From: Escherichia phage AV125
DNA: 64,000 bases
Sequence record: OR352955.1
Reading direction: 5' to 3' (one strand)
In this document: piece after piece, positions 6,591 to 58,857 of the stretch
Position numbering within the stretch: position 1 is the first letter of the stretch
Layout: each line of letters begins with the position of its first letter
Notes under the pieces: generated by a model
What the model was told of the DNA's origin: nothing
Database searches by the model: none
Seen by the model: only the letters and a program-made list of their open reading frames with translations
Program-made: the position numbers and the translations under genes

Positions 6591-6896
6591 TTAGAATTCC
6601 TCTTCAGTCTTCTGTCGGTTTTTGAAGAATACTACGTCATATACCTCTCCGTAACCATCATTTACACAGAACATAATAAAACGATCATCTTCTGCTGTTG
6701 GTGCGCGATGTTCAAGTTCAAAACTTTCAATAAAACCTCGTGAATTTACGTAGTAGATTTCATCCTCACCAGAGAACATCCAATCCCTGTCTATCAGATA
6801 GAAAGCTAAACTCACAGGCAACAACTCATCCTTCACAGAATCATTGTACAGCATGTGGGCTGCAACTGCCAAGCTTAAAGTCGGATTATACAACAT
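6591..6896 (-). CDS. hypothetical protein, paralog of 6896..7123
   Basis: 101 aa; shares FIMxFVNxGxGExxxVVFxK motif with adjacent ORF. Confidence 0.5.
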   Translation of the reverse strand: MLYNPTLSLAVAAHMLYNDSVKDELLPVSLAFYLIDRDWMFSGEDEIYYVNSRGFIESFELEHRAPTAEDDRFIMFCVNDGYGEVYDVVFFKNRQKTEEEF

Positions 6897-45924: not shown

Positions 45925-45957
45925 AAAAGGCACCCACTTGGGTGCCTTTGTTTTATT
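45925..45957. terminator. bidirectional intrinsic terminator at convergence of plus and minus blocks
   Basis: GGCACCC-actt-GGGTGCC flanked by AAAA upstream and TTTGTTTTATT downstream. Confidence 0.65.
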
Positions 45958-46268: not shown

Positions 46269-47084
46269 TTATTTGTTTAAGTGGTCTTCGACCATTTTAA
46301 TGAAACCTTCATTGCTGAAGGCTGTTGCAGCTTTTTCTCGGTAAACAAAAACTCCACGATCTTCATAGAGAAGTGTTTCTTCGTAATTAACTCCAGGGTT
46401 AACTACAACCATTTTTGTACCCATACTAAGTGCAGGAAATAATTCCCAATTAAAATTGATAACTTGGTTTGAACATCCTACTACTACAACCAAATCTTGC
46501 ATGGTCAAAGTATCGAACAAGTGAGCCATATCTGCATACAAAGGTGCAGCCTCACCAAAAAATACAACATTAGGCTTCACCCAGTTATAATCATCTATGT
46601 TTATACTATTGTAACCAATATCTACCAGTGTTTTGTAATCTCCAGGATGCATACGGTAAACTACTTCAGGAAGATATCCGTGTACGTGAATAACAGAATC
46701 TCTGTCTACACCTGCTCGCTCTAGCAGATCATCAACGTTTGTTGTCAAGTTTACTATTTGGTTAGGATATTCCTTAAACCACTTTGCTATTTGAATATGT
46801 GCAGCATTAGGTTGTACATCTTTAAGCTCAACACGTCTTTTGTTATAAAATTCGTGTGTTTTGGCATACAAATCCATACCGTTCTCGTCTACACCACCGA
46901 CCACTGGAAGATCTGGAGATGTTCTAACACGATAACCTGCTTGGAAAGCTCCAATATCGCAGACCTCTTCTAAATCATATTCTTCCCATAAAGCACGACC
47001 ACTATCTGTGTCTGTTCTAAATGTTCGAATCCCACTGTCTGCACTTAAACCTGCACCGCTTACAAAAATCACTCGTCTTGGCAT
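46269..47084 (-). CDS. Sir2-like (sirtuin family) NAD-dependent protein
   Basis: 271 aa; N-terminal FVSGAGLSADSGIRTFR, central HG, FFGE match the sirtuin NAD-binding signature as remembered. Confidence 0.7.
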   Translation of the reverse strand: MPRRVIFVSGAGLSADSGIRTFRTDTDSGRALWEEYDLEEVCDIGAFQAGYRVRTSPDLPVVGGVDENGMDLYAKTHEFYNKRRVELKDVQPNAAHIQIAKWFKEYPNQIVNLTTNVDDLLERAGVDRDSVIHVHGYLPEVVYRMHPGDYKTLVDIGYNSINIDDYNWVKPNVVFFGEAAPLYADMAHLFDTLTMQDLVVVVGCSNQVINFNWELFPALSMGTKMVVVNPGVNYEETLLYEDRGVFVYREKAATAFSNEGFIKMVEDHLNK

Positions 47085-47612: not shown

Positions 47613-48266
47613 CTATACCAGACTTTGTAGGTATTTGTCAAGGGCTTCTTGATCGCCTTGACAAACATAGCAACGGAAGTCTTGAGCCGAAGGTTGTTTA
47701 TTTTCATCCCAGTCCCAATAAACATTACCCTTATAACGTGAACCAGGAAACTCAAAAGAGGCTGTATGTGTAATGTATCCTGGGCCACCAGTGAAATCAC
47801 AGAATGAGAATTGGGGGTATGCCGCCTTTACTGCCTCAATAAACCAAGCTTTACGATCTAAAGCTTCATTGATGCTATACGCATGTCTCTCCATTTCTTC
47901 CCACGTTTTCCAGACACTTCTCTCATCAGGAGAAAAGACAAGCCATTCTGGAAGGTATAGAGTGTCATAGTAATCATCATATTCGATCTCGGAGGCGCAC
48001 GAAGCTGACTCCTCCAGTTTTGAGTAATCAAAAGCAGAATATACCCACCAACCATCTTCCAGTAACGCTTTGATAGGGACGAAGCCTTTATCAGCATATT
48101 GATCGAATTGTTTGACACGGTGGCTTGTGCAGTCTTCAAACTCACATTCTAAACGATATGCACCTTTTCGACGAGCCTCAAGACCGTGTGTACTGAAAAT
48201 AACAACACTTCCTTCACCATCATTACGATCTACTTGATAAGCAACCACTGGTTTTGAATTTGACAT
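47613..48266 (-). CDS. hypothetical protein (217 aa)
   Basis: ORF track; no motif recognised. Confidence 0.6.
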   Translation of the reverse strand: MSNSKPVVAYQVDRNDGEGSVVIFSTHGLEARRKGAYRLECEFEDCTSHRVKQFDQYADKGFVPIKALLEDGWWVYSAFDYSKLEESASCASEIEYDDYYDTLYLPEWLVFSPDERSVWKTWEEMERHAYSINEALDRKAWFIEAVKAAYPQFSFCDFTGGPGYITHTASFEFPGSRYKGNVYWDWDENKQPSAQDFRCYVCQGDQEALDKYLQSLV

Positions 48267-48949
48267 TATTTCTCCTTATCTAGAAGATTGTTAGACAAAA
48301 ACACTGCACGAGCAAAACCACGTGCGGTTAGTGATCTAAGTTGTTTTGTTTTTGCACTAGCTCCACCTAAGCTTTTCCAACCCCAGAAGCAGCCTATATG
48401 ATCTACTGGTTTCTTCACTGGTTGAACAAAACCATTGCCGTGCCAAATACAAGTTTTCTTTGTATACCCATCACGGGTAGGCATTTTAGGATGAAAGCTT
48501 CCTTCCTCTTCAAACAAATACCCACCATACTCATAAGGATCAAAGTAAAAATCGGGTTTACGCCATAAGGTTGAAAGTTTACCTACTGGGTTCTCAATCA
48601 TCCAAGGAACATTATATTTGTTACCCAAAGCTTCCACTACACGAATATTAGCTAAAGCTTCATCCAATTCCTCTGTGCTGCGTTCGTGTTTGCTACCACT
48701 ACCTGCTAACATAGTGCAAGGTGGAAATCCAAAAATAATATCGGGTTTAGGTATCCCATGATCTTCAGGGTTGAATGTAGAATCTATCCAGGTATTCACA
48801 TAGGTTATGTTTGGGTGCTCCATCCTAACCTCGTATTTACCGTGATCCCCTTCATCAGCGTTTACACAAAAACACTTGTGACCTGCTTCGGCATAACGTA
48901 ACACCATGATCCCAGATCCGTCAAACATAGACAAAACTGTTTTACTCAT
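48266..48949 (-). CDS. small DNA (cytosine-5)-methyltransferase-like protein
   Basis: Start ATG 48949; motif I SMFDGSG, motif IV FGFPPC, motif VI MIENPVG; short (227 aa), target-recognition region not evident. Confidence 0.55.
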   Translation of the reverse strand: MSKTVLSMFDGSGIMVLRYAEAGHKCFCVNADEGDHGKYEVRMEHPNITYVNTWIDSTFNPEDHGIPKPDIIFGFPPCTMLAGSGSKHERSTEELDEALANIRVVEALGNKYNVPWMIENPVGKLSTLWRKPDFYFDPYEYGGYLFEEEGSFHPKMPTRDGYTKKTCIWHGNGFVQPVKKPVDHIGCFWGWKSLGGASAKTKQLRSLTARGFARAVFLSNNLLDKEK

Positions 48950-49338: not shown

Positions 49339-50280
49339 TTAATAACCTCCTTCAAAAGGCTTAACTACATGTTGATTAGCTTTAAAACGTTCAACATAGT
49401 CATTTTCGCCCATGTTTTCATATAGCTTAGTAACAACATAAAAGTTTTCCCAAGCATATTCCCTAAACCAACCACTAGTGATGGATGTGCAGACTTTAGA
49501 TAAAGCCATTATAAAACTTTGCTTAGGGGTTGGACCTCCAATCTCTTCACCGAAAGGAATTTGTGAACGTTCCAAAGCCAAAACACACGCTTCTTCATAA
49601 ACACCTAACAGGCGCACATGTTTTGGTTGAGCAAAAAACTTTTCTTTGCTGGTCATAACTTCACTTCCATCTTTCATATAAGATTTATATGCTGGAGCAT
49701 CCATTAACGCGATTGCTTCATGGATAGAATCATGATCATAAACATACGGAACCTCGTCACCTTTAAAGAAGTCTTTACTTTTTACGTTTAAGTTCGGATG
49801 AGAGTAAGTGTATGTTTCTTTCTCACGCAACTCATAAATACTCTTAAGATTTTCTGGGATCTTTGCGCCCAGTGACCGCATGAAATGAATATCTTTCATA
49901 GTTTTAAAGAAATGAGGACTATCCTTTTTAAAACGATGACTCATTTTAAGAAGGTAGAGCACATCTAAAGGAGCAACAACATGTCCAGCGTAAGTTCGAC
50001 GAACATCATCAGAATCTTCACAATAACTAATCAAAGCTTCTGTGCTATCTCCTTGAGAAGCAATATCGTATTCCAAATGTGCACCAGTTATCATTTTGAC
50101 ATGGCCTTTGTTTCCTTTACGTTCTACAAGTTCAACAAACTCCTCTTGAGAGAACATTTTTGATAATTCTTCCCACTCTTGTTCTGTACACAGGTAATCT
50201 AAATCTACACAAGGGCGATACAAGTCTTTTCCCATGTCCATAGCATGAATTTGCAATGCACGGCTACCAATTAACACCAT
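49339..50280 (-). CDS. Pol-beta-superfamily nucleotidyltransferase-like protein
   Basis: 313 aa; N-terminal IGSRALQIHAMDMGKDLYRPCVDLDY fits hG[GS]x9-13DhD with downstream HLEYD acidic residue. Confidence 0.5.
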   Translation of the reverse strand: MVLIGSRALQIHAMDMGKDLYRPCVDLDYLCTEQEWEELSKMFSQEEFVELVERKGNKGHVKMITGAHLEYDIASQGDSTEALISYCEDSDDVRRTYAGHVVAPLDVLYLLKMSHRFKKDSPHFFKTMKDIHFMRSLGAKIPENLKSIYELREKETYTYSHPNLNVKSKDFFKGDEVPYVYDHDSIHEAIALMDAPAYKSYMKDGSEVMTSKEKFFAQPKHVRLLGVYEEACVLALERSQIPFGEEIGGPTPKQSFIMALSKVCTSITSGWFREYAWENFYVVTKLYENMGENDYVERFKANQHVVKPFEGGY

Positions 50281-50340: not shown

Positions 50341-50362
50341 AAAAAACCCGCCGAAGCGGGTT
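50341..50362 (-). terminator. intrinsic terminator
   Basis: AACCCGC-cgaa-GCGGGTT with T-run on minus strand. Confidence 0.6.
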
Positions 50363-51349: not shown

Positions 51350-51623
51350 AAAATTTCTCCTCTCCTAAAGACATGTTGACATGAAATGCGCGGTATGTAA
51401 ATTCGTTGTCCGTTGTGTTAGAATAAAACTCAAATTGAACAACACCGTCTTGAGAAGACAAATACATGCCAATTTGAACTGTTCCTTCTGGTACCAGGTA
51501 AGCATACTCTGGACGTAGTGTTACATTGTAAAAATAAAGTTCCCCAACACCCATTTCATCCCAAGCTTCCCAAGCGGTAACGAAGTTACTTTCAAAACTT
51601 GTTACTGATCCGAACTCTGCCAT
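51333..51623 (-). CDS. hypothetical protein (96 aa)
   Basis: ORF track. Confidence 0.45.
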   Translation of the reverse strand: MAEFGSVTSFESNFVTAWEAWDEMGVGELYFYNVTLRPEYAYLVPEGTVQIGMYLSSQDGVVQFEFYSNTTDNEFTYRAFHVNMSLGEEKFYDDQV

Positions 51624-52114
51624 AAAACCTCCTCAATCTTGTAGTTTGACTCCATCTCCAACACATTTCCACGAACGTCTCTCCGAAGAAAGGCATAAGC
51701 TTTATTAGGTATTGTAGACTCATATTTAACCATATCTGGCACAGCAAAAGATACTACTACTCCTGCTGGGCTTCTGTCAAGAGCCTTATTAATATTTCTA
51801 AGGATATCGTTAGCCAAGATTTCTGCCAATTCTCCAAGAACAGTTTCTGTTATATCTTTATATCCCATTAAGTATTTGTTGATATCTTTCATCTCCGTAT
51901 TGTTCAGAGTATAGTCCAAAGGATAGAAATTCAAAGCGGAGTCACTTTTATGTGTCCACATGAAATGCACCCGATCCGAGCAGAATCGTAACCCTCTTTG
52001 AAGAATATCTTCTACAACAGGCAGAATTTCTTTTGTCACATCATTAACCATGTTGTAATCTAAGATTTCTGCCAAGTTTGTTCTTTGTTCACCACGTTTA
52101 CGTTTAGGAATCAC
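51602..52114 (-). CDS. hypothetical protein (170 aa)
   Basis: ORF track. Confidence 0.55.
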   Translation of the reverse strand: MIPKRKRGEQRTNLAEILDYNMVNDVTKEILPVVEDILQRGLRFCSDRVHFMWTHKSDSALNFYPLDYTLNNTEMKDINKYLMGYKDITETVLGELAEILANDILRNINKALDRSPAGVVVSFAVPDMVKYESTIPNKAYAFLRRDVRGNVLEMESNYKIEEVLWQSSDQ

Positions 52115-52685
52115 TTGTTATTGCCCTCATTACCAAAGGTCGTAGAAAATCGTAAATCTCTTGTTTTGTTTTCCCACGAATGTTTAAACAAGGAACATTA
52201 TTGGCTTTAGCTATCTTCCAAGCCGTAGCTGTTCCACCTTTTGCATCTCCATGTTTATCAGTATTAGCACAAGCCAACAAGAAACATGATGGAGCAGGAT
52301 TCTCCAAATCTCTACCTAACACTTGATGCACATTACGTTGGTGCAATTTTCTAGCACCCTGCTTAAGCTTTTCATAGGCTGGGTGAACATCTTTGATCCA
52401 TTGCACAGAGATAGCATAGTTCATTGTATCTGGTTTTGCAAGAACAATAACATCCCCTGGAATCTGATTACCTTTGAAATTTTCCCAAGGAACATAAATC
52501 TCCTTGTTAGTAGGATTTTCAGACTCTTGGACACCTGTTTCAAAAGCAGAATCACTACCCTCTGCCTTCCCAGACCTTAATTTAAACCCAAGGTTTGAAA
52601 GCCATTTCCCTATGCCTACCATCAAAGCCCACTCTTCTTCGGATATGTCTCTACTTCCAACTCCCGTATAGAACAGTTCTGCCAT
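52104..52685 (-). CDS. DprA/Smf-like Rossmann-fold protein
   Basis: Start ATG 52685; GVGSRDIS...LSNLGFKLRSGKAEGSDSAFETG resembles DprA GSR...SG.A.GiD core as remembered. Confidence 0.45.
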   Translation of the reverse strand: MAELFYTGVGSRDISEEEWALMVGIGKWLSNLGFKLRSGKAEGSDSAFETGVQESENPTNKEIYVPWENFKGNQIPGDVIVLAKPDTMNYAISVQWIKDVHPAYEKLKQGARKLHQRNVHQVLGRDLENPAPSCFLLACANTDKHGDAKGGTATAWKIAKANNVPCLNIRGKTKQEIYDFLRPLVMRAITSDS

Positions 52686-52692
52686 AATCACC

Positions 52693-53001
52693 TCAACAAG
52701 TAATTTCAAAAGGTGTATAGGGTTCCGTATTTCTCATGATCCAAGGACTGCTAGGATTGCTCGGATCATAAGGGCCAAAAGGTTTTATGGTAGGTTGTGT
52801 TTCTTTCTTCTGAATCTCTTCAAAAATACGACGAAGTTCAGAATATTCTTGATCCACCATAAGATTCGGTGCATCTGATTCTACAGCTTGCAGGTTATCT
52901 TCCTTAAGAACAATCTCACGAACAAGATTAACATCTTCTGTTTCTAAGATAACTTCTTTACGGATATTACCTACACTTTGAATAATTGTAATCTTATACA
53001 T
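52693..53001 (-). CDS. hypothetical protein (102 aa)
   Basis: ORF track. Confidence 0.5.
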   Translation of the reverse strand: MYKITIIQSVGNIRKEVILETEDVNLVREIVLKEDNLQAVESDAPNLMVDQEYSELRRIFEEIQKKETQPTIKPFGPYDPSNPSSPWIMRNTEPYTPFEITC

Positions 53002-53744
53002 TAATCCTCCTCAAGAGTTGAATAAAATTGAAGACCACCGTCCATATCGAAATAAGCAAATGTTAAGTTATTATTGAACACAGATCCAGTATCCATATAA
53101 ACACGATTCGCATTGATAATAGGTGTTTTTACATAAGAGTGTCCATGAAACACATAATCCACACCCATCACAACAGGAAGTTTCATTCCCTCTTTAGCAC
53201 AGTCTACCATATCTCTGTCCCACATAAGTGCTTCAGCAAAACGGTTTTCCTGTGTTTTTGTCATCTTCGAAATGTATTCTGGAATATCTGTTACAGGGAG
53301 ATATTCCAAAGAAGATGGATACCCACCATGAATAAACGCAAGTTTCATGCCTCTGTAGTTAACAATGAGAACAACAGGTAAATCTTCTGTCATCATTGCT
53401 AAGGCTGTAGCTCCTTCTTCACCACATTCTTCAAAGACCGTATATCCTCCATTTTGATACCAACACTCATAGTAGCTACGATCTCCTTCCAGCATACCTT
53501 TAATCATCATGTCTTCATGATTGCCACGAATAGCGTAGCGATTGTGTTTACGAGTAAATTCTAAAACACAACGAAAGTTTTGCTTTCCACGGTCAGTAAG
53601 ATCTCCTAGAGATACAACCACATCTGTATCTCGGATACCTAACTTTGCCTTTCCTTTTTCATACAAATTATAACAACCGTGTAGATCTCCAATTATAAAA
53701 AGATCTTGATCGCTTTTAACAGTAATTTCTCTGTGTATGATCAC
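53001..53744 (-). CDS. Ser/Thr protein phosphatase (calcineurin-like metallophosphoesterase)
   Basis: 247 aa; GDLHG, GDLTDRG, GNHE metallophosphatase motifs. Confidence 0.8.
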   Translation of the reverse strand: MIIHREITVKSDQDLFIIGDLHGCYNLYEKGKAKLGIRDTDVVVSLGDLTDRGKQNFRCVLEFTRKHNRYAIRGNHEDMMIKGMLEGDRSYYECWYQNGGYTVFEECGEEGATALAMMTEDLPVVLIVNYRGMKLAFIHGGYPSSLEYLPVTDIPEYISKMTKTQENRFAEALMWDRDMVDCAKEGMKLPVVMGVDYVFHGHSYVKTPIINANRVYMDTGSVFNNNLTFAYFDMDGGLQFYSTLEED

Positions 53745-54070
53745 TTATCCTCCTCAAAATCTAAGAAAATAAAAATATTCACCTTTCCTTCAATCTCTTG
53801 TTCTAAAACAAGATCGGCAAATTCTGCATAAGCTTTCTCTTCAACTTTTTCAATATGTTCTGCGGCATCTTTAAAAGGCGTATCCCCATCCACCTTTACT
53901 AATAAGAAAAGAGATCGCATTTCGACGTTTTTACTGTTACGAGGAAGGAAATCTACAGCTTCAACAATTCTCCAACCCAAATAGCCAGGGGTTTTATGAA
54001 TCTCCCCTAAATACTTTTCTAAGATTTTACGACCCTCGTCGATAAGGGCTTGTTCTGTAGTAATTTCCAT
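53741..54070 (-). CDS. hypothetical protein (109 aa)
   Basis: ATGA overlap. Confidence 0.5.
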   Translation of the reverse strand: MEITTEQALIDEGRKILEKYLGEIHKTPGYLGWRIVEAVDFLPRNSKNVEMRSLFLLVKVDGDTPFKDAAEHIEKVEEKAYAEFADLVLEQEIEGKVNIFIFLDFEEDK

Positions 54071-54080
54071 TCCTTCCTCC

Positions 54081-54653
54081 TCAAATTATTAACGAAACCG
54101 CATGACTAAATCTTGGTTCAGATATAACCTCTGCTACAGTCACATATGTATCGTGCAGCCAAAAAGATTCTACTCTACAAACACAAATACCGTTGATAAT
54201 GAAATCTACACAGGCTTTATTATTTTCGCACACTTGTTGACTATAAACAACCCCTAAAGAGTCATAAAGTGATCTCACTGTTGCTACCATTTCATCTGTT
54301 TCGTCTTCCTGTGAAACAAAGAAAACGAATACAGACAAGTTATTAGCGAAAGTATTGCTATTCTCTACTTCAACCGACTTACAAGGTAAAAAGGAGTAAT
54401 ATTTACCGTTAGGTATCAATTTCGCCTCAACCTGGTTAAGTATGCTTTGAGATGGTTTTGTTACATAAAAAAGATTTTCTGTTGGGTTTTCAACATTACT
54501 CCTTACTATGCAACGAGTGGGGTTCGAAGGATCAAAAACATGATCGAAATCGACACACACAGGTAAGTTAACAACTTTAAACTTTTTGCTAAGAATGCTT
54601 ACTGCTGTAAAAATCAAACCAGCATTTATTTTGCCAGTGAAAGTTGAACGCAT
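54081..54653 (-). CDS. hypothetical protein (190 aa)
   Basis: Start ATG 54653 after GAGGAG. Confidence 0.5.
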   Translation of the reverse strand: MRSTFTGKINAGLIFTAVSILSKKFKVVNLPVCVDFDHVFDPSNPTRCIVRSNVENPTENLFYVTKPSQSILNQVEAKLIPNGKYYSFLPCKSVEVENSNTFANNLSVFVFFVSQEDETDEMVATVRSLYDSLGVVYSQQVCENNKACVDFIINGICVCRVESFWLHDTYVTVAEVISEPRFSHAVSLII

Positions 54654-54667
54654 AACTACTCCTCGGA

Positions 54668-54862
54668 TCATTCTACCAAAGAGAATTCCGCCTCTTCCAG
54701 GTAGATTACAGACCTTGTTGCATGATATTTAACGCTCCAGAAATTACCTTCGCGCCGTAAAAGTATCTCATTCACATCAAGATTGCTTAGAAAAACCATA
54801 TAACTTAAAGCTTGTTGACGCGTTGAGAATTGTTTCTCTAAAAGTTCTTCTCCGCTCTGCAT
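54668..54862 (-). CDS. hypothetical protein (64 aa)
   Basis: ORF track; AAGGAGGG upstream. Confidence 0.45.
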   Translation of the reverse strand: MQSGEELLEKQFSTRQQALSYMVFLSNLDVNEILLRREGNFWSVKYHATRSVIYLEEAEFSLVE

Positions 54863-54907
54863 AATCCCTCCTTAAAATACTCCCTCCGAAAAGGGAGTAT
54901 AAGTATA

Positions 54908-55111
54908 TCACGTAGTTGTTATGTTGTCTTCTTGGATACTAGAATCCACTTCTGCAAACATATCTTCTGCACTGTAATTATTTCCAGTCCAGCGTGATAA
55001 AAGGATAGCACCAATCTCTTTTGCATGAGATTCGGACTCCGCATAAACGTTAGTCCCAGTGTCACCTTTTTTCTTTTCATGTGCATAAATGCAGTAATAA
55101 TTGTAAGCCAT
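54908..55111 (-). CDS. hypothetical protein (67 aa)
   Basis: ORF track. Confidence 0.45.
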   Translation of the reverse strand: MAYNYYCIYAHEKKKGDTGTNVYAESESHAKEIGAILLSRWTGNNYSAEDMFAEVDSSIQEDNITTT

Positions 55112-55347
55112 TAATCTTCCCAGTCATTGCCCTCGGTAGAGTGAACTAAAGCTCGCACGATACCACCGTAATCTACTGCCTGATTTGCAGCATGTTCGGC
55201 ATAAACTTCAATGGCTTTTTTGAAGAAAAGAGCAGTAGCTGCTTCAATATTATCCATTTCGCCATCTACGTCAGTAGAAAGTGAAAGGTTGAGGCTTTCA
55301 TCTACTTCATCAAAATCAATAGCCACTGTCATAATTAGTTTACCCAT
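55111..55347 (-). CDS. hypothetical acidic protein (78 aa)
   Basis: ORF track. Confidence 0.5.
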   Translation of the reverse strand: MGKLIMTVAIDFDEVDESLNLSLSTDVDGEMDNIEAATALFFKKAIEVYAEHAANQAVDYGGIVRALVHSTEGNDWED

Positions 55348-55359
55348 AGTTCACACTCC

Positions 55360-55869
55360 TTAAACAAAATAAAATGGTTGAGAGAGGCCCAAACGATTCT
55401 TTGGGTCGTATACATACCAAGCGTATGCTGTCTTATCTGTTCCACCTGCAACAAACGAAGGCCGTTCTGAAAGGACTATAAGGTTTGTTGGTGGATTCTT
55501 TTGATGGAACTCTCGTCGTTTCTTTGACTCCAAGAAGCCCAACCGAAGAAGATAAATACAAACATCTGCCTCTTTTAAGCTCTTTTCCAAGAACTCCATT
55601 GCTAACTTAAATGGAGGATTTGTGATTATAATGTCGGGACGATTTTCCCATTCATGACTAAAATAATCTTTACCTTCTTCAAGTTCGCAATATTCTGAAC
55701 CTTCAGGAAAATGGCGATAAATCGCTTCAGCTTCACCTCTGCAAGGTTCTGCAAAAACCCAACCTTCTTCCTTTAGATTTTTGAAATCTATAACACTAAA
55801 CAAACTATTGATTGCTTTTTGCGGTGTCGGATAATAATCGCTCGTTGGGCGATCATAATCTAATGCCAT
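55360..55869 (-). CDS. small DNA N6-adenine methyltransferase-like protein
   Basis: 169 aa; NPPF catalytic motif (IIITNPPFKLA); size fits short phage Dam-type proteins. Confidence 0.5.
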   Translation of the reverse strand: MALDYDRPTSDYYPTPQKAINSLFSVIDFKNLKEEGWVFAEPCRGEAEAIYRHFPEGSEYCELEEGKDYFSHEWENRPDIIITNPPFKLAMEFLEKSLKEADVCIYLLRLGFLESKKRREFHQKNPPTNLIVLSERPSFVAGGTDKTAYAWYVYDPKNRLGLSQPFYFV

Positions 55870-56287
55870 CTAAAATCTCCTCTTTTGTAATATTATCCAA
55901 CTCTTTAAAGGATGAAATCTCGTTTAATAATCCTATTTGATCAGCTTCTAGCGGATAAGTGTTTTTATCTGTTTTTCTAGACAGAATATCTTCAACAAAC
56001 TTATCAATAGCCAAAGAAGAATCATAAAATTTTAAAAGTTGGTAATCCATAGGAGATATTTTGTCATCTCTTAGAAATATTTCTAACATGTTTTCAGGAG
56101 TATCGTGGTTTAGTTTATGTTCACCAAAAATATTAACTTCGTAAACATCTTTGCCAAACCAACGTTTCTTCTTTTCAACAGTATAGGTTTTTGCCACCAG
56201 ACCATCTAAACAGTTTCTTGCCCTCTTACATGTTTGACGGTAAGAGTGGATAGCGCCTTCAACAAACTTAGCAGGAACTTGTAACAT
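55853..56287 (-). CDS. hypothetical protein (144 aa)
   Basis: ORF track. Confidence 0.5.
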   Translation of the reverse strand: MLQVPAKFVEGAIHSYRQTCKRARNCLDGLVAKTYTVEKKKRWFGKDVYEVNIFGEHKLNHDTPENMLEIFLRDDKISPMDYQLLKFYDSSLAIDKFVEDILSRKTDKNTYPLEADQIGLLNEISSFKELDNITKEEILDGIRL

Positions 56288-56311
56288 TATTAATCTCCTA
56301 TGTTTAAGAAA

Positions 56312-56327
56312 TGCCCCCGAAGGGGCA
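56312..56327 (-). terminator. intrinsic terminator
   Basis: TGCCCC-cgaa-GGGGCA downstream of 56333 stop. Confidence 0.5.
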
Positions 56328-56332
56328 GTTTG

Positions 56333-57025
56333 TTAAATAGCGGTTCCTTCGAAATCCGCCACATTTACGAGATTAATATTTTCAGATTTAGAAGTCAAGT
56401 TGTTTTCTGCAACAGATTTTTCTTCAGTATCCGCCTCGTTACCTGCCACGTTACGAGGTTCTTCTTCACCGTAGGGATTACCGAATTTCAAAAGATTGAT
56501 CAATTCTTCTTTGGAGAAGTTTTCTAAATCATCGTCTGTTAATTCAATAATCTCGTCTTGTTCTTCAATAAATGTTTCACCACCAGAAAAAGCATCTCGC
56601 TTTTTAGCTACTTCCATAGCTTGTTCTGGTGTTGCCCCTGCGTCAAGAGCAGCTAAAGCAAAGTCTGACCCACTTCCTACTGCATAATATTCTTCATCAA
56701 TCGGATATGCACGTGTTGGGTTGTTACCTTCGTGCAAGAAAATACGTCCGTCTGGATGAACAACAAGTGCAATAAACTCTTCATCTTCTTTATCTGGATC
56801 AGAGTGAATCATCAAACCAGGGACAGCATCACGTGCTGCTTCGCACTGTAGATTTTGTTCAAACCATTGAAAGAAAGAAAGCACGGAGGTCAGACGACCA
56901 GCACCACCTACAAGGTAATCTCCAATTTTTCGGACCTTTTTGAAATTAATAGAATCTACACGTCCACCAAAAGTTACCTTACCATCACTCAAAATCTTAT
57001 TTTTGGTTGCAATAATTGTCGTCAC
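56333..57025 (-). CDS. HslV-like Ntn-hydrolase peptidase with acidic C-terminal extension
   Basis: 230 aa, GTG start; N-terminal TTIIATKNK...GRVDSINFKKVRKIG..GGAGR and AVGSGSDFALAA parallel HslV as remembered. Confidence 0.65.
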   Translation of the reverse strand: MTTIIATKNKILSDGKVTFGGRVDSINFKKVRKIGDYLVGGAGRLTSVLSFFQWFEQNLQCEAARDAVPGLMIHSDPDKEDEEFIALVVHPDGRIFLHEGNNPTRAYPIDEEYYAVGSGSDFALAALDAGATPEQAMEVAKKRDAFSGGETFIEEQDEIIELTDDDLENFSKEELINLLKFGNPYGEEEPRNVAGNEADTEEKSVAENNLTSKSENINLVNVADFEGTAI

Positions 57026-57560: not shown

Positions 57561-58319
57561 TTAAATAAACACTTCAGTAATCAGTTTAGACAAACGTCCA
57601 CGTTTATTATCGTCCGTTGTCAGTTCAACGTATCCAATAAAATCTACAATTGGTTCACGAACACCTTCTTCATTTTCTGGATATAAAAGTTCCAAAATTT
57701 GATGCAGACCATTGCTACGTTTTTTAATTGCATATGTCTGGCGAACATCGCCTAATACAATAACATGCGTATTAATACCTGCACGTTCAATAAGAAGTTT
57801 AAGTGTTTCTGTTGACATAAGTTGTGCTTCGTCAATAATGACGATTGTATTATCCAGGGTAGCCCCCAACAAATAGTTAGGAATATTCAATTCGATCTTA
57901 CCTGATCCAATATCGTTTTCCAATTTGTTGGCTGTCATGAATTGCTGGAAAATACGTTTTGTAGATTCATAGTGTGCTGCTAGTTTATCTGTTTTATCCC
58001 CAGACAAGAAACCAATCTGGTCATCTCCGACTTCAGTAGGGTTCTTGATAAAAAGTAGTTTACGGAAGTCTCCTGAACGAAGCATCTGCAAAGCTTTCCA
58101 TAAAGCAACAGAGGTTTTACCAGTCCCTGCCGGAGCATTTACAACAGTCAGATCATTCCAGATCATGCTTTGAACAATCTTATTTTGGTCCCCTTCAGGC
58201 ATAAATTCATCTAAACGGTAATCGTCATTACCTACCGCTTTTGCTGCATAACGGCTTTCAATCTTTGCTGAATTAGCCAGTTTCTGCCGTTGTGTTTTAG
58301 CTGCGGTTTTATTTCCCAT
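57561..58319 (-). CDS. phoH: PhoH-like ATPase
   Basis: Start ATG 58319 after AAGGAG (track start 58370 overlaps lysozyme gene); Walker A NAPAGTGKTS, Walker B IIDEAQ. Confidence 0.8.
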   Translation of the reverse strand: MGNKTAAKTQRQKLANSAKIESRYAAKAVGNDDYRLDEFMPEGDQNKIVQSMIWNDLTVVNAPAGTGKTSVALWKALQMLRSGDFRKLLFIKNPTEVGDDQIGFLSGDKTDKLAAHYESTKRIFQQFMTANKLENDIGSGKIELNIPNYLLGATLDNTIVIIDEAQLMSTETLKLLIERAGINTHVIVLGDVRQTYAIKKRSNGLHQILELLYPENEEGVREPIVDFIGYVELTTDDNKRGRLSKLITEVFI

Positions 58320-58336
58320 AGTAGCACTCCTTTTAG

Positions 58337-58354
58337 AAGGGGCCGAAGCCCCTT
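58337..58354 (-). terminator. stem-loop between lysozyme and phoH (copy 2 of repeated hairpin)
   Basis: AAGGGGC-cgaa-GCCCCTT identical to 46244-46261. Confidence 0.45.
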
Positions 58355-58356
58355 TA

Positions 58357-58857
58357 TTAGTTGTAAGCATCTAAAGTTCCAGAAGTCAGAACTTTAATTA
58401 CTCGTTCAGCACGGTTTGGCGTCTGGCTATACCATCGGCTTTTACGCATGTTTTTACCTGCTTGAGTATAATATGCATTGCTGATTAAAGTCAAGCTATT
58501 TTGAAACCCTTCAGCACCTTTTAACCCCAACTGGAAAACCATGTTGATTATTCCCAATTTACGAGTATCACTCACCTTATCATAGATTGGTGATAAGATA
58601 GCACTGTTTTTTATGTCTCTCTTCACTTTTGCAACATCGTCAGCAAAGATTTGACGGGCTTCTTTTTCTGTGATAACTCCATTAGTCTTACGACCAAGAA
58701 GATTATCTAAGATTTGAATAGCCTTTGCTTTATCTTTTATTTTAGTCAGAAGGTGTCCTATGCCGACTGTCCAATAACCAAGATGGTCTTGATAAACAGT
58801 AAGCTTCAGTCCTTCATCGACTCGTAGCATATCAAACTCATCTACTACTTTAGCCAT
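58357..58857 (-). CDS. T4-type lysozyme (endolysin, glycoside hydrolase family 24)
   Basis: 166 aa; MLRVDEGLKLTVYQDHLGYWTVGIGHLL...NGVITEKEA...SRWYSQTPNRAERVIKVLTSGTLDAYN aligns along its length with T4 lysozyme as remembered. Confidence 0.9.
   Translation of the reverse strand: MAKVVDEFDMLRVDEGLKLTVYQDHLGYWTVGIGHLLTKIKDKAKAIQILDNLLGRKTNGVITEKEARQIFADDVAKVKRDIKNSAILSPIYDKVSDTRKLGIINMVFQLGLKGAEGFQNSLTLISNAYYTQAGKNMRKSRWYSQTPNRAERVIKVLTSGTLDAYN

Follow-up and report, generated by a model that had tools for sequence, protein, structure and literature searches.

Location of the Three Genes and Their Existing Annotation

The window analyzed in this study is a 64,000-nucleotide stretch of DNA from Escherichia phage AV125 (OR352955.1), and the region of interest is a minus-strand block at positions 52104–55869 with the genes for a DprA-like protein, a lambda-type serine/threonine (Ser/Thr) phosphatase and a small methyltransferase. 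The window is from a Phapecoctavirus (Stephanstirmvirinae), which is a phAPEC8-like myovirus of Escherichia coli. Positions 51600–56300 were 99.6–99.7% identical over their full length to many published Phapecoctavirus genomes, and the near-identical genomes in this comparison included those of phAPEC8, ESCO13, vB_EcoM-Ro121lw and Mt1B1_P17. The three genes are as follows.

52104..52685, minus strand: stand-alone DprA-clade SLOG (Rossmann) protein of 193 amino acid residues, orthologue of phAPEC8 gp185
53001..53744, minus strand: lambda-type PPP-family Ser/Thr phosphatase (NinI-like) of 247 residues, orthologue of phAPEC8 gp183
55360..55869, minus strand: minimal gamma-class (TaqI/HsdM-like) amino-methyltransferase core of 169 residues, orthologue of phAPEC8 gp177

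The first-pass annotation of this DNA had placed the three open reading frames (ORFs) in a single minus-strand block within 4 kb, and both their coordinates and their strand were borne out. Together they span 3.77 kb. They are not adjacent, as seven further small ORFs separate them. The PHROG matches of the DprA-like protein, the phosphatase and the methyltransferase had E-values of 2e-62, 1.8e-75 and 3e-59, respectively, and each ORF of the block matched a PHROG family at E ≤ 1e-42. Given these matches and the many homologues found, the ORFs of the block are genuine conserved genes and not chance reading frames.

The RefSeq record of phAPEC8 (NC_020079.1) labels gp185 as "DprA-like DNA recombination-mediator protein," gp183 as "NinI-like serine-threonine phosphatase" and gp177 as "DNA methyltransferase." Similarly, LR597654.1 carries the labels "DprA-like RecA mediator" and "DNA methylase." Because near-identical phages have all three genes named in their RefSeq and GenBank records, naming the trio restates existing public annotation.

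The 193-Residue Protein: A Single SLOG Domain of the DprA Clade

The ORF of the DprA-like protein starts with the ATG at 52685, which is preceded by a Shine-Dalgarno sequence (GAGGTGA) overlapping the upstream stop codon. Because of this Shine-Dalgarno sequence and because the homologues begin at the same residue, a longer reading from the TTG at 52709 is unlikely.

Searches identified 276 homologues. The score of the single sequence against Pfam PF02481 (DNA_processg_A) was 12.7–12.8 bits, which is below the gathering cutoff of 29.6 bits. In addition, a PDB search with the single sequence gave no meaningful match, and no match was found in NCBIfam or PADLOC. The first-pass annotation had regarded the DprA call as the weakest of its three calls, one that relied on a short motif, and the sub-cutoff Pfam score and the empty PDB search bear this caution out. 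A profile built from 44 homologues matched the DprA structure 3MAJ across the N-terminal motifs (E = 0.016), and hhalign of the family profile with the single sequence of E. coli Smf aligned only 39 N-terminal columns with a probability of 14%.

The AlphaFold2 model of the 193-residue protein is a single alpha/beta domain with a predicted local distance difference test (pLDDT) score of 95.5 and a predicted template modeling (pTM) score of 0.91. Its structural neighbors and their scores were the Moco carrier protein 2IZ5 (16.0), DprA 3MAJ (15.6), TM1055 (1RCU; 15.1), Helicobacter pylori DprA 4LJK (15.0), LOG enzymes (~14), ShosA 8ZVA (13.3), YpsA (12.1) and the SLOG domain of ThsA (10.8). The model confirms a SLOG-type Rossmann fold, and DprA structures are among the nearest structural neighbors.

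Assignment to the DprA clade is based on sequence evidence, namely the family-wide Pfam scan and the motifs shared with E. coli Smf. For 39 of the 44 family members, PF02481 was the sole recurrent Pfam match, although the matches were weak (best E = 2.6e-7). LDcluster4 was matched by 7 of the 44, and none of them matched the Pfam models of LOG or YpsA. The BFVD matches belonged to a widespread group of uncharacterized phage proteins, such as the homologues of phi92 gp047 and the "DprA-like protein" of Vibrio phage VP-1. This DprA-like group, which matched the model with E-values between 1e-9 and 1e-17, is distinct from the viral SLOGs of the YspA/DUF2493 type, whose matches were weak (E ~1e-3 or worse).

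The DprA-type motifs G-S-R, S-G-x-A-x-G-x-D, R-N and (S/G)-G-x-x-x-T-A were invariant or nearly so among the 44 homologues. The corresponding motifs of the window protein and E. coli Smf are GVGSR and VVGSR, LRSGKAEGSDSA and ITSGLARGIDGVA, LHQRNVHQVLG and FPRRNRIISGLS, and KGGTATAW and RSGSLVTAR, respectively. The DprA-type ligand pocket is kept; it comprises the G-S-R loop after strand 1, the motifs SGxAxGxD and R-N, and the GGT loop. LOG cytokinin-type phosphoribohydrolases possess the motif PGGxGTxxE with a catalytic Glu. An enzyme of this type was rejected for the window protein, whose sequence at this site is KGGTATAWK and whose residue at the position of the catalytic Glu is K157, which varies in the family.

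The arginine residues that bind single-stranded DNA (ssDNA) were mapped with PDB alignments and the ShosA paper. R52, R143 and R170 of H. pylori DprA (HpDprA) correspond to R139, R234 and R261 of ShosA and to R12, R117 and W156 of the window protein. R12 and R117 are invariant in the family, while the third position, W156, is not conserved. According to the ShosA paper, the R261E mutant of ShosA keeps its function.

Compared with the DprA/Smf proteins of Streptococcus pneumoniae (3UQZ), H. pylori (4LJK/4LJR), Rhodopseudomonas palustris (3MAJ) and E. coli, the window protein shares five motifs (GSR, SGxAxGxD, beta-3, RN and G/S-G-x-x-TA) and two of the three ssDNA-binding arginines, the third being replaced. 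Different from them, it scores under the Pfam gathering threshold, contains a family-specific helical insert (~35–45 residues), with the invariant residues W67, H115 and Q121, and is encoded among phage accessory genes rather than competence genes. The SAM domain and the C-terminal winged-helix (DML1) domain are also absent, as the AlphaFold2 model has one domain only. Similar to the window protein, ShosA, the antitoxin of ShosTA (8ZVA, 9VZO), has a DprA-type Rossmann domain outside natural transformation, and its ssDNA-binding R139 and R234 have their counterparts in R12 and R117. The SAM domain, the extra C-terminal dimerization helix and the PRTase toxin partner ShosT of that system, however, are absent from the window system.

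The 193-residue protein is a one-domain, DprA-clade member of the SLOG Rossmann superfamily. Of the DprA/Smf-like Rossmann domain proposed in the first-pass annotation, the fold, the motifs and the clade stand, whereas the Pfam cutoff for DprA is not reached and the accessory domains are missing. The protein probably binds a phosphate-bearing nucleotide ligand, which would be ssDNA or an ADP-ribose derivative.

Domain Fusions and Gene Neighborhoods of the SLOG Family

A profile search against 1.84 billion representatives returned 5942 cluster representatives of the family at 50% identity. Most family members are stand-alone proteins of 170–210 residues. A Pfam scan of ten longer top matches revealed NADAR fused to the SLOG domain in three proteins (P0263, P0328 and P0241, the last with 1488 residues), DUF4326 in P0317 and MazG in P0382. 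All fusion proteins kept the family-invariant residues and were 33–42% identical to the window protein.

Several of the longer proteins showed additional features. P0241 and P0242, both metagenomic and ~1480 residues long, carry a DprA-like SLOG domain. P0241 also contains YAcAr and LDcluster4 SLOG domains as well as the C-terminal NADAR, so that several SLOGs are found in one ADP-ribose-linked polypeptide. The SLOG domain is joined by an unassigned domain in P0340 and P0349 (N-terminal, ~125 residues) and in P0321 (C-terminal, ~140 residues). Stand-alone homologues of the C-terminal domain of P0321 adjoin the SLOG gene at L085 7612–8001, where the gene is directly upstream, and at L075 5695–6162.

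The neighborhood sample consisted of 80 loci from IMG/VR plus six additional contigs. Clustering by the SLOG protein at 70% identity gave 47 lineages, in which the genes up to 8 kb away from the SLOG gene were inspected. The most frequent neighbor was PhoH (14 lineages), followed by the family of the 169-residue methyltransferase, the lambda-type phosphatase and ribonucleotide reductase (8 each), ClpP, deoxycytidine monophosphate (dCMP) deaminase, HslV, Nampt and Macro (7 each), phosphoribosyl pyrophosphate (PRPP) synthetase (6), DUF4326 (4) and NADAR (2). A Macro, NADAR or DUF4326 gene was present in 12 of the 47 lineages, and 17 of the 47 were reached once Nampt, PRPP synthetase and SIR2 were added; both are raw counts without a background rate. 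In three lineages, Macro was located ~400–750 bp upstream of the SLOG gene. The window itself encodes a phage sirtuin 5 kb from the SLOG gene.

46269–47084, minus strand: phage sirtuin, matching Pfam SIR2 (PF02146) with E = 1.9e-22

SIR2 and SLOG genes were found near each other in Phapecoctavirus-type lineages only. SIR2 and SLOG are also the two domains paired in the Thoeris effector ThsA, which in the window phage are split into two separate genes. In the contig L007, with a SLOG protein that shares 46% identity with that of the window, the gene at positions 6886–7110 matches the Acb2/Tad1-hairpin Pfam family of anti-CBASS/anti-Thoeris sponges. It lies downstream of the SLOG gene, three genes away, and genes for an RNA ligase and PNKP are close by.

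Possible Roles of the SLOG Protein

Iyer et al. (2022; PMC9503650; Viruses 14:1977) predicted a role for viral SLOGs, which are often combined with DUF4326, Macro and NADAR, in sensing or processing the ADP-ribose derivatives that host immunity produces, and they described viral SLOGs as experimentally uncharacterized. The fusions and neighborhoods of the window family match this prediction. Similar to those viral SLOGs, the window protein is a stand-alone protein of a large caudovirus whose family has NADAR/DUF4326 fusions as well as Macro and NAD-salvage neighbors. However, most viral SLOGs of Iyer et al. (2022) belong to a YpsA-like clade, whereas the window family is nearest to DprA, and the ADP-ribose-processing neighbors of the window gene consist of SIR2 only, 5 kb away. 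Because its family is fused to NADAR, DUF4326 and MazG and is often encoded beside Macro, NADAR, DUF4326, Nampt and PRPP synthetase genes, the 193-residue protein is suggested to work in the phage's handling of host immunity based on nicotinamide adenine dinucleotide (NAD+) and ADP-ribose, rather than to load RecA in the manner of competence proteins.

Several observations weigh against this role. The neighborhood counts are inflated by synteny among related large myoviruses and come without a background rate. No NADAR, Macro, DUF4326 or Nampt gene was found near the SLOG gene of the window, where SIR2 alone is nearby, and NAMPT has been reported absent from Phapecoctavirus-type phages. Moreover, the two retained ssDNA-binding arginines are equally compatible with a genuine ssDNA/RecA mediator. 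Such a protein would be a true minimal DprA, a dimer that binds ssDNA, loads the host RecA and mediates recombination-dependent replication or repair of the phage. The public label "DprA-like RecA mediator" implies as much. Among Pfam families, DprA comes closest to 39 of the 44 members, each of the five motifs in the Rossmann domain of E. coli Smf has its counterpart, and the two arginines that ShosA and HpDprA require for ssDNA binding and function do not vary in the family. ShosA, which is DprA-like, retains its binding to ssDNA and RecA although it has no competence context. The phAPEC8 record names no RecA or UvsX in its parts 1–80 kb and 98–148 kb, and a mediator would therefore need the RecA of the host. 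A true DprA is thus a serious alternative, although a rather unlikely one. The Pfam score falls well short of the cutoff (12.7 vs. 29.6 bits), the SAM and winged-helix domains are missing and the third ssDNA-binding arginine is not conserved. Furthermore, the identifiable frequent neighbors and fusion domains include no recombination or competence gene, but NADAR, DUF4326, MazG, Macro and Nampt instead.

In a further proposal, the DprA-clade SLOG protein would be an ssDNA- or ADP-ribose-directed factor that counters ADP-ribose-based immunity. NADARs have been shown to strip ADP-ribose from guanine in DNA, and the T4 NADAR gp30.3 (AdfN) counters DarTG1 (PMC11825919). In relatives, the SLOG domain is fused to a NADAR of the AdfN/gp30.3 type. 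Because NADARs act on ADP-ribosylated guanine in DNA and gp30.3 counters DarTG1, a DprA-type ssDNA-binding domain in such a fusion may be rationalized as a targeting module. The window protein might recognize or shield ssDNA that has been ADP-ribosylated by DarT-type toxins, it might aid RecA-dependent bypass of the lesions made by such toxins, or it might bind ADP-ribose-derived signals. We regard such an ssDNA- or ADP-ribose-directed factor as a tentative proposal, less probable still than a true DprA. The link of this DprA-like protein to ADP-ribose/NAD counter-defense, in preference to classical recombination, looks like the one new point of this analysis.

The Ser/Thr Phosphatase

The identification of the 247-residue protein as a lambda-type Ser/Thr phosphatase in the first-pass annotation proved correct. 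The protein contains the motifs GDLHG, GDLTDRG and GNHE and matches Pfam Metallophos (E = 2.7e-13, 51.2 bits vs. a cutoff of 21.5) and phrog_246 "NinI-like" (E = 1.8e-75). Its match to the lambda phosphatase 1G5B extends over the full length (E = 5.5e-27), with GDxHG, GDxxDRG, GNHE and both downstream His residues aligned. The NCBIfam models of E. coli PrpA and PrpB were matched with E-values of 1e-26 and 2e-23, respectively, both under their equivalog cutoffs. Similar to lambda NinI (1G5B) and E. coli PrpA/PrpB, the window protein is a PPP-family metallophosphatase with all catalytic motifs. Different from lambda NinI, it is ~25 residues longer because of extra residues that separate the third His motif from the fourth. 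The protein is a homologue of lambda phosphatase with all metal-binding and catalytic motifs. Since these motifs are intact, it is predicted to be an active Mn2+-dependent phosphoprotein phosphatase. A literature search found no role for phage NinI-type phosphatases, including one in defense.

The 169-Residue Methyltransferase

Searches identified 247 homologues of the 169-residue methyltransferase. The curated models did not recognize it: the score for Pfam EcoRI_methylase was 14.7 bits compared with a cutoff of 26.4, NCBIfam gave no match, and the PDB search with the single sequence gave no meaningful match. PADLOC MTase_II was matched with E = 3.6e-4, and the family profile weakly matched PacII M and StySJI HsdM via motifs X–IV (E ~0.05).

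In a 42-sequence alignment, the motifs followed the gamma-class order and were invariant or nearly so. They include motif X (Y-x-T-P, residues 13–16), motif I (E-P-C-x-G, 41–45), motif II (E62), motif III (D68) and motif IV (T-N-P-P-F, 83–87, with NPPF at 84–87), followed by R136-P-x-F and W151. A class I S-adenosylmethionine-dependent methyltransferase fold with motifs X and I N-terminal to motif IV was confirmed. Thus, the protein is a gamma-class NPPF amino-methyltransferase core whose S-adenosylmethionine-binding motifs are intact. A target-recognition domain is absent, as the protein stops ~80 residues past motif IV, and no HsdS-like gene was found adjacent to its gene. The 169-residue protein shares the class I fold, the motif order X-I-II-III-IV and NPPF with M.TaqI (1AQI), MmeI and HsdM as well as with PH1948/METTL5. 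Unlike the gamma-class enzymes, it lacks a target-recognition domain, HsdS-binding helices and a known partner, and no curated Pfam or NCBIfam model detects it.

The homologues occur as orphan genes within the replication regions of phages, and one of them is directly beside a C5 DNA methylase gene. Some homologues (P0171, P0190 and P0203) possess a Cys-rich, zinc-ribbon-like insert of ~35 residues right after RPSF (alignment columns ~183–216), at the site expected for a target-recognition element.

Because the X/I/IV pattern is common to HsdM/TaqI enzymes and the homologues are found in phage replication regions, a DNA adenine target is favored, and N6-methyladenine in DNA is most likely the product, with a specificity predicted to be low or partner-dependent. 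The NPPF adenine methyltransferase of the first-pass annotation is therefore upheld in its fold and gamma-class motifs, whereas no target-recognition domain accompanies them and the choice among DNA, RNA and protein as substrate is by inference. METTL5/PH1948 and HemK/Mtq2 are equally small enzymes without a target-recognition domain, and the 169-residue protein could, like them, methylate RNA (N6-methyladenine in ribosomal or transfer RNA) or protein glutamine. The family profile matches METTL5 with E = 0.17, there is no target-recognition domain that would read a DNA sequence, and related phages were highly restriction-sensitive in the BASEL experiments. The best profile matches, however, are those to the HsdM/PacII/TaqI-type DNA enzymes, whose signature is the N-terminal motif X (Y-x-T-P) together with EPCxG and NPPF. 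The orphan position of the homologues in DNA-replication regions, once next to a C5 DNA methylase, and the Cys-rich insert of some homologues at the site expected for a DNA-recognition element also argue against an RNA or protein substrate, which we consider unlikely.

In the BASEL experiments, Vequintavirinae and their relatives were "exceptionally susceptible" to restriction-modification; the phages tested included no Phapecoctavirus. As these tested relatives are very restriction-sensitive, a broad anti-restriction role of the methyltransferase seems doubtful. Nothing decisive was found in the literature on methylation in the rV5 group. Four methyltransferase genes are annotated in phAPEC8, despite the restriction sensitivity of the tested relatives. 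In the window, the minus-strand gene at 48266–48949 encodes another methyltransferase-like protein of 227 residues with the C5-cytosine-type motifs FDGSG, GFPPC and ENP. This protein had no Pfam match and matched the cytosine methylases of PADLOC weakly (E ~2e-4).

Overall, profile support was present for the DprA and methyltransferase folds, and the three calls of the first-pass annotation hold at the level of profile or fold.

Other Genes and Signals of the Block

The remaining genes and signals of the region are listed below.

52693..53001, minus strand: hypothetical protein of 102 residues (phrog_15301, no family assigned)
53741..54070, minus strand: hypothetical protein of 109 residues (phrog_15398)
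54081..54671, minus strand: protein labeled "histidyl tRNA synthetase" (phrog_4806, E = 3e-64), label unsupported
54668–54862, 54908–55111 and 55111–55347, minus strand: three small hypothetical ORFs (PHROGs of unknown function, E ≤ 1e-42 each)
55853..56287, minus strand: hypothetical protein of 144 residues (phrog_15078)
56312..56327, minus strand: intergenic terminator-like hairpin upstream of the block (TGCCCCTTCGGGGGCA, then TTTCTT), between ORFs 56333–57025 and 55853–56287
50345..50362, minus strand: intergenic terminator-like hairpin downstream of the block, at the site of an annotated terminator in the phAPEC8 RefSeq record
50339–50311, minus strand: promoter-like site right after the hairpin at 50345–50362 (TTGACA, 17 nucleotides, TAAACT, with a TG extension)

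The two hairpins enclose ~6 kb with ~17 ORFs, and the three genes are probably co-transcribed with ~14 other small ORFs. Co-transcription of the block is plausible and does not constitute evidence for a common function. The block is flanked on the same strand by genes for an HslV/proteasome-like peptidase (56333–57025) and a PhoH-like ATPase (57561–58370) on one side and for a DUF7275/DUF7277 protein (49339–50280) on the other. A bidirectional terminator-like hairpin is found at 45926–45949, where the coding strand switches (~45.9 kb) and the GC skew also changes its sign.

The label "histidyl tRNA synthetase" (tRNA, transfer RNA) of 54081–54671 was rejected, as it had no support from Pfam, NCBIfam or PDB. 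The same label is attached to a second phAPEC8 gene, gp042, and it seems to be a misannotation that has been passed on between records. A search of the window for tRNA genes gave none.

The Three Genes as Neighbors and Their Significance

The first-pass annotation had grouped the three genes in one block. Evidence for a functional link among them was not found. The SLOG, phosphatase and methyltransferase genes occurred together in only 4 of the 47 lineages, which were that of the window, its relatives with 66 and 58% identity and a distant syntenic contig, L062, with 36% identity. These four lineages also share a wider synteny that includes PhoH, HslV and genes for lysozyme, glutaredoxin or ribonucleotide reductase. 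In the other lineages, the SLOG gene was accompanied by one partner, by the other or, in most cases, by neither.

If the three genes were one co-selected anti-defense module acting together, their common strand and their position between two terminator-like hairpins would be in keeping with it, as would the presence of the phosphatase in 8 of the 47 lineages, that of the small methyltransferase likewise in 8 of the 47, and the occurrence of all three genes in L062. Such a module is highly improbable, however. The wider synteny of the four co-occurring lineages indicates common descent and not selection for linkage, seven unrelated small ORFs lie between the three genes, most neighborhoods of the SLOG gene lack both partners, and no known biochemical logic joins the three activities. 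Because synteny of the trio does not extend beyond close relatives and one broadly syntenic contig, a three-gene functional module was rejected, and the pattern is an inherited gene order in related large myoviruses. Taken together, the region is more probably an ordinary minus-strand region of accessory and nucleotide-metabolism genes, in which three independent genes form no module and the SLOG protein takes part in NAD+/ADP-ribose handling.

The finding of the trio is itself minor, given that the genes had been named before and that the trio reflects synteny and not a system. For the SLOG protein, the label "DprA-like DNA recombination-mediator" propagated through PHROG probably overstates what is known. 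If the tentative proposal of an ssDNA- or ADP-ribose-directed factor is true, the SLOG domain would serve a widespread and uncharacterized anti-DarT/ADP-ribose toolkit of large phages as its targeting module, and a proven role in counter-defense, be it against the ADP-ribosylation of DNA or against signaling by ADP-ribose, would add a common player to phage anti-immunity.

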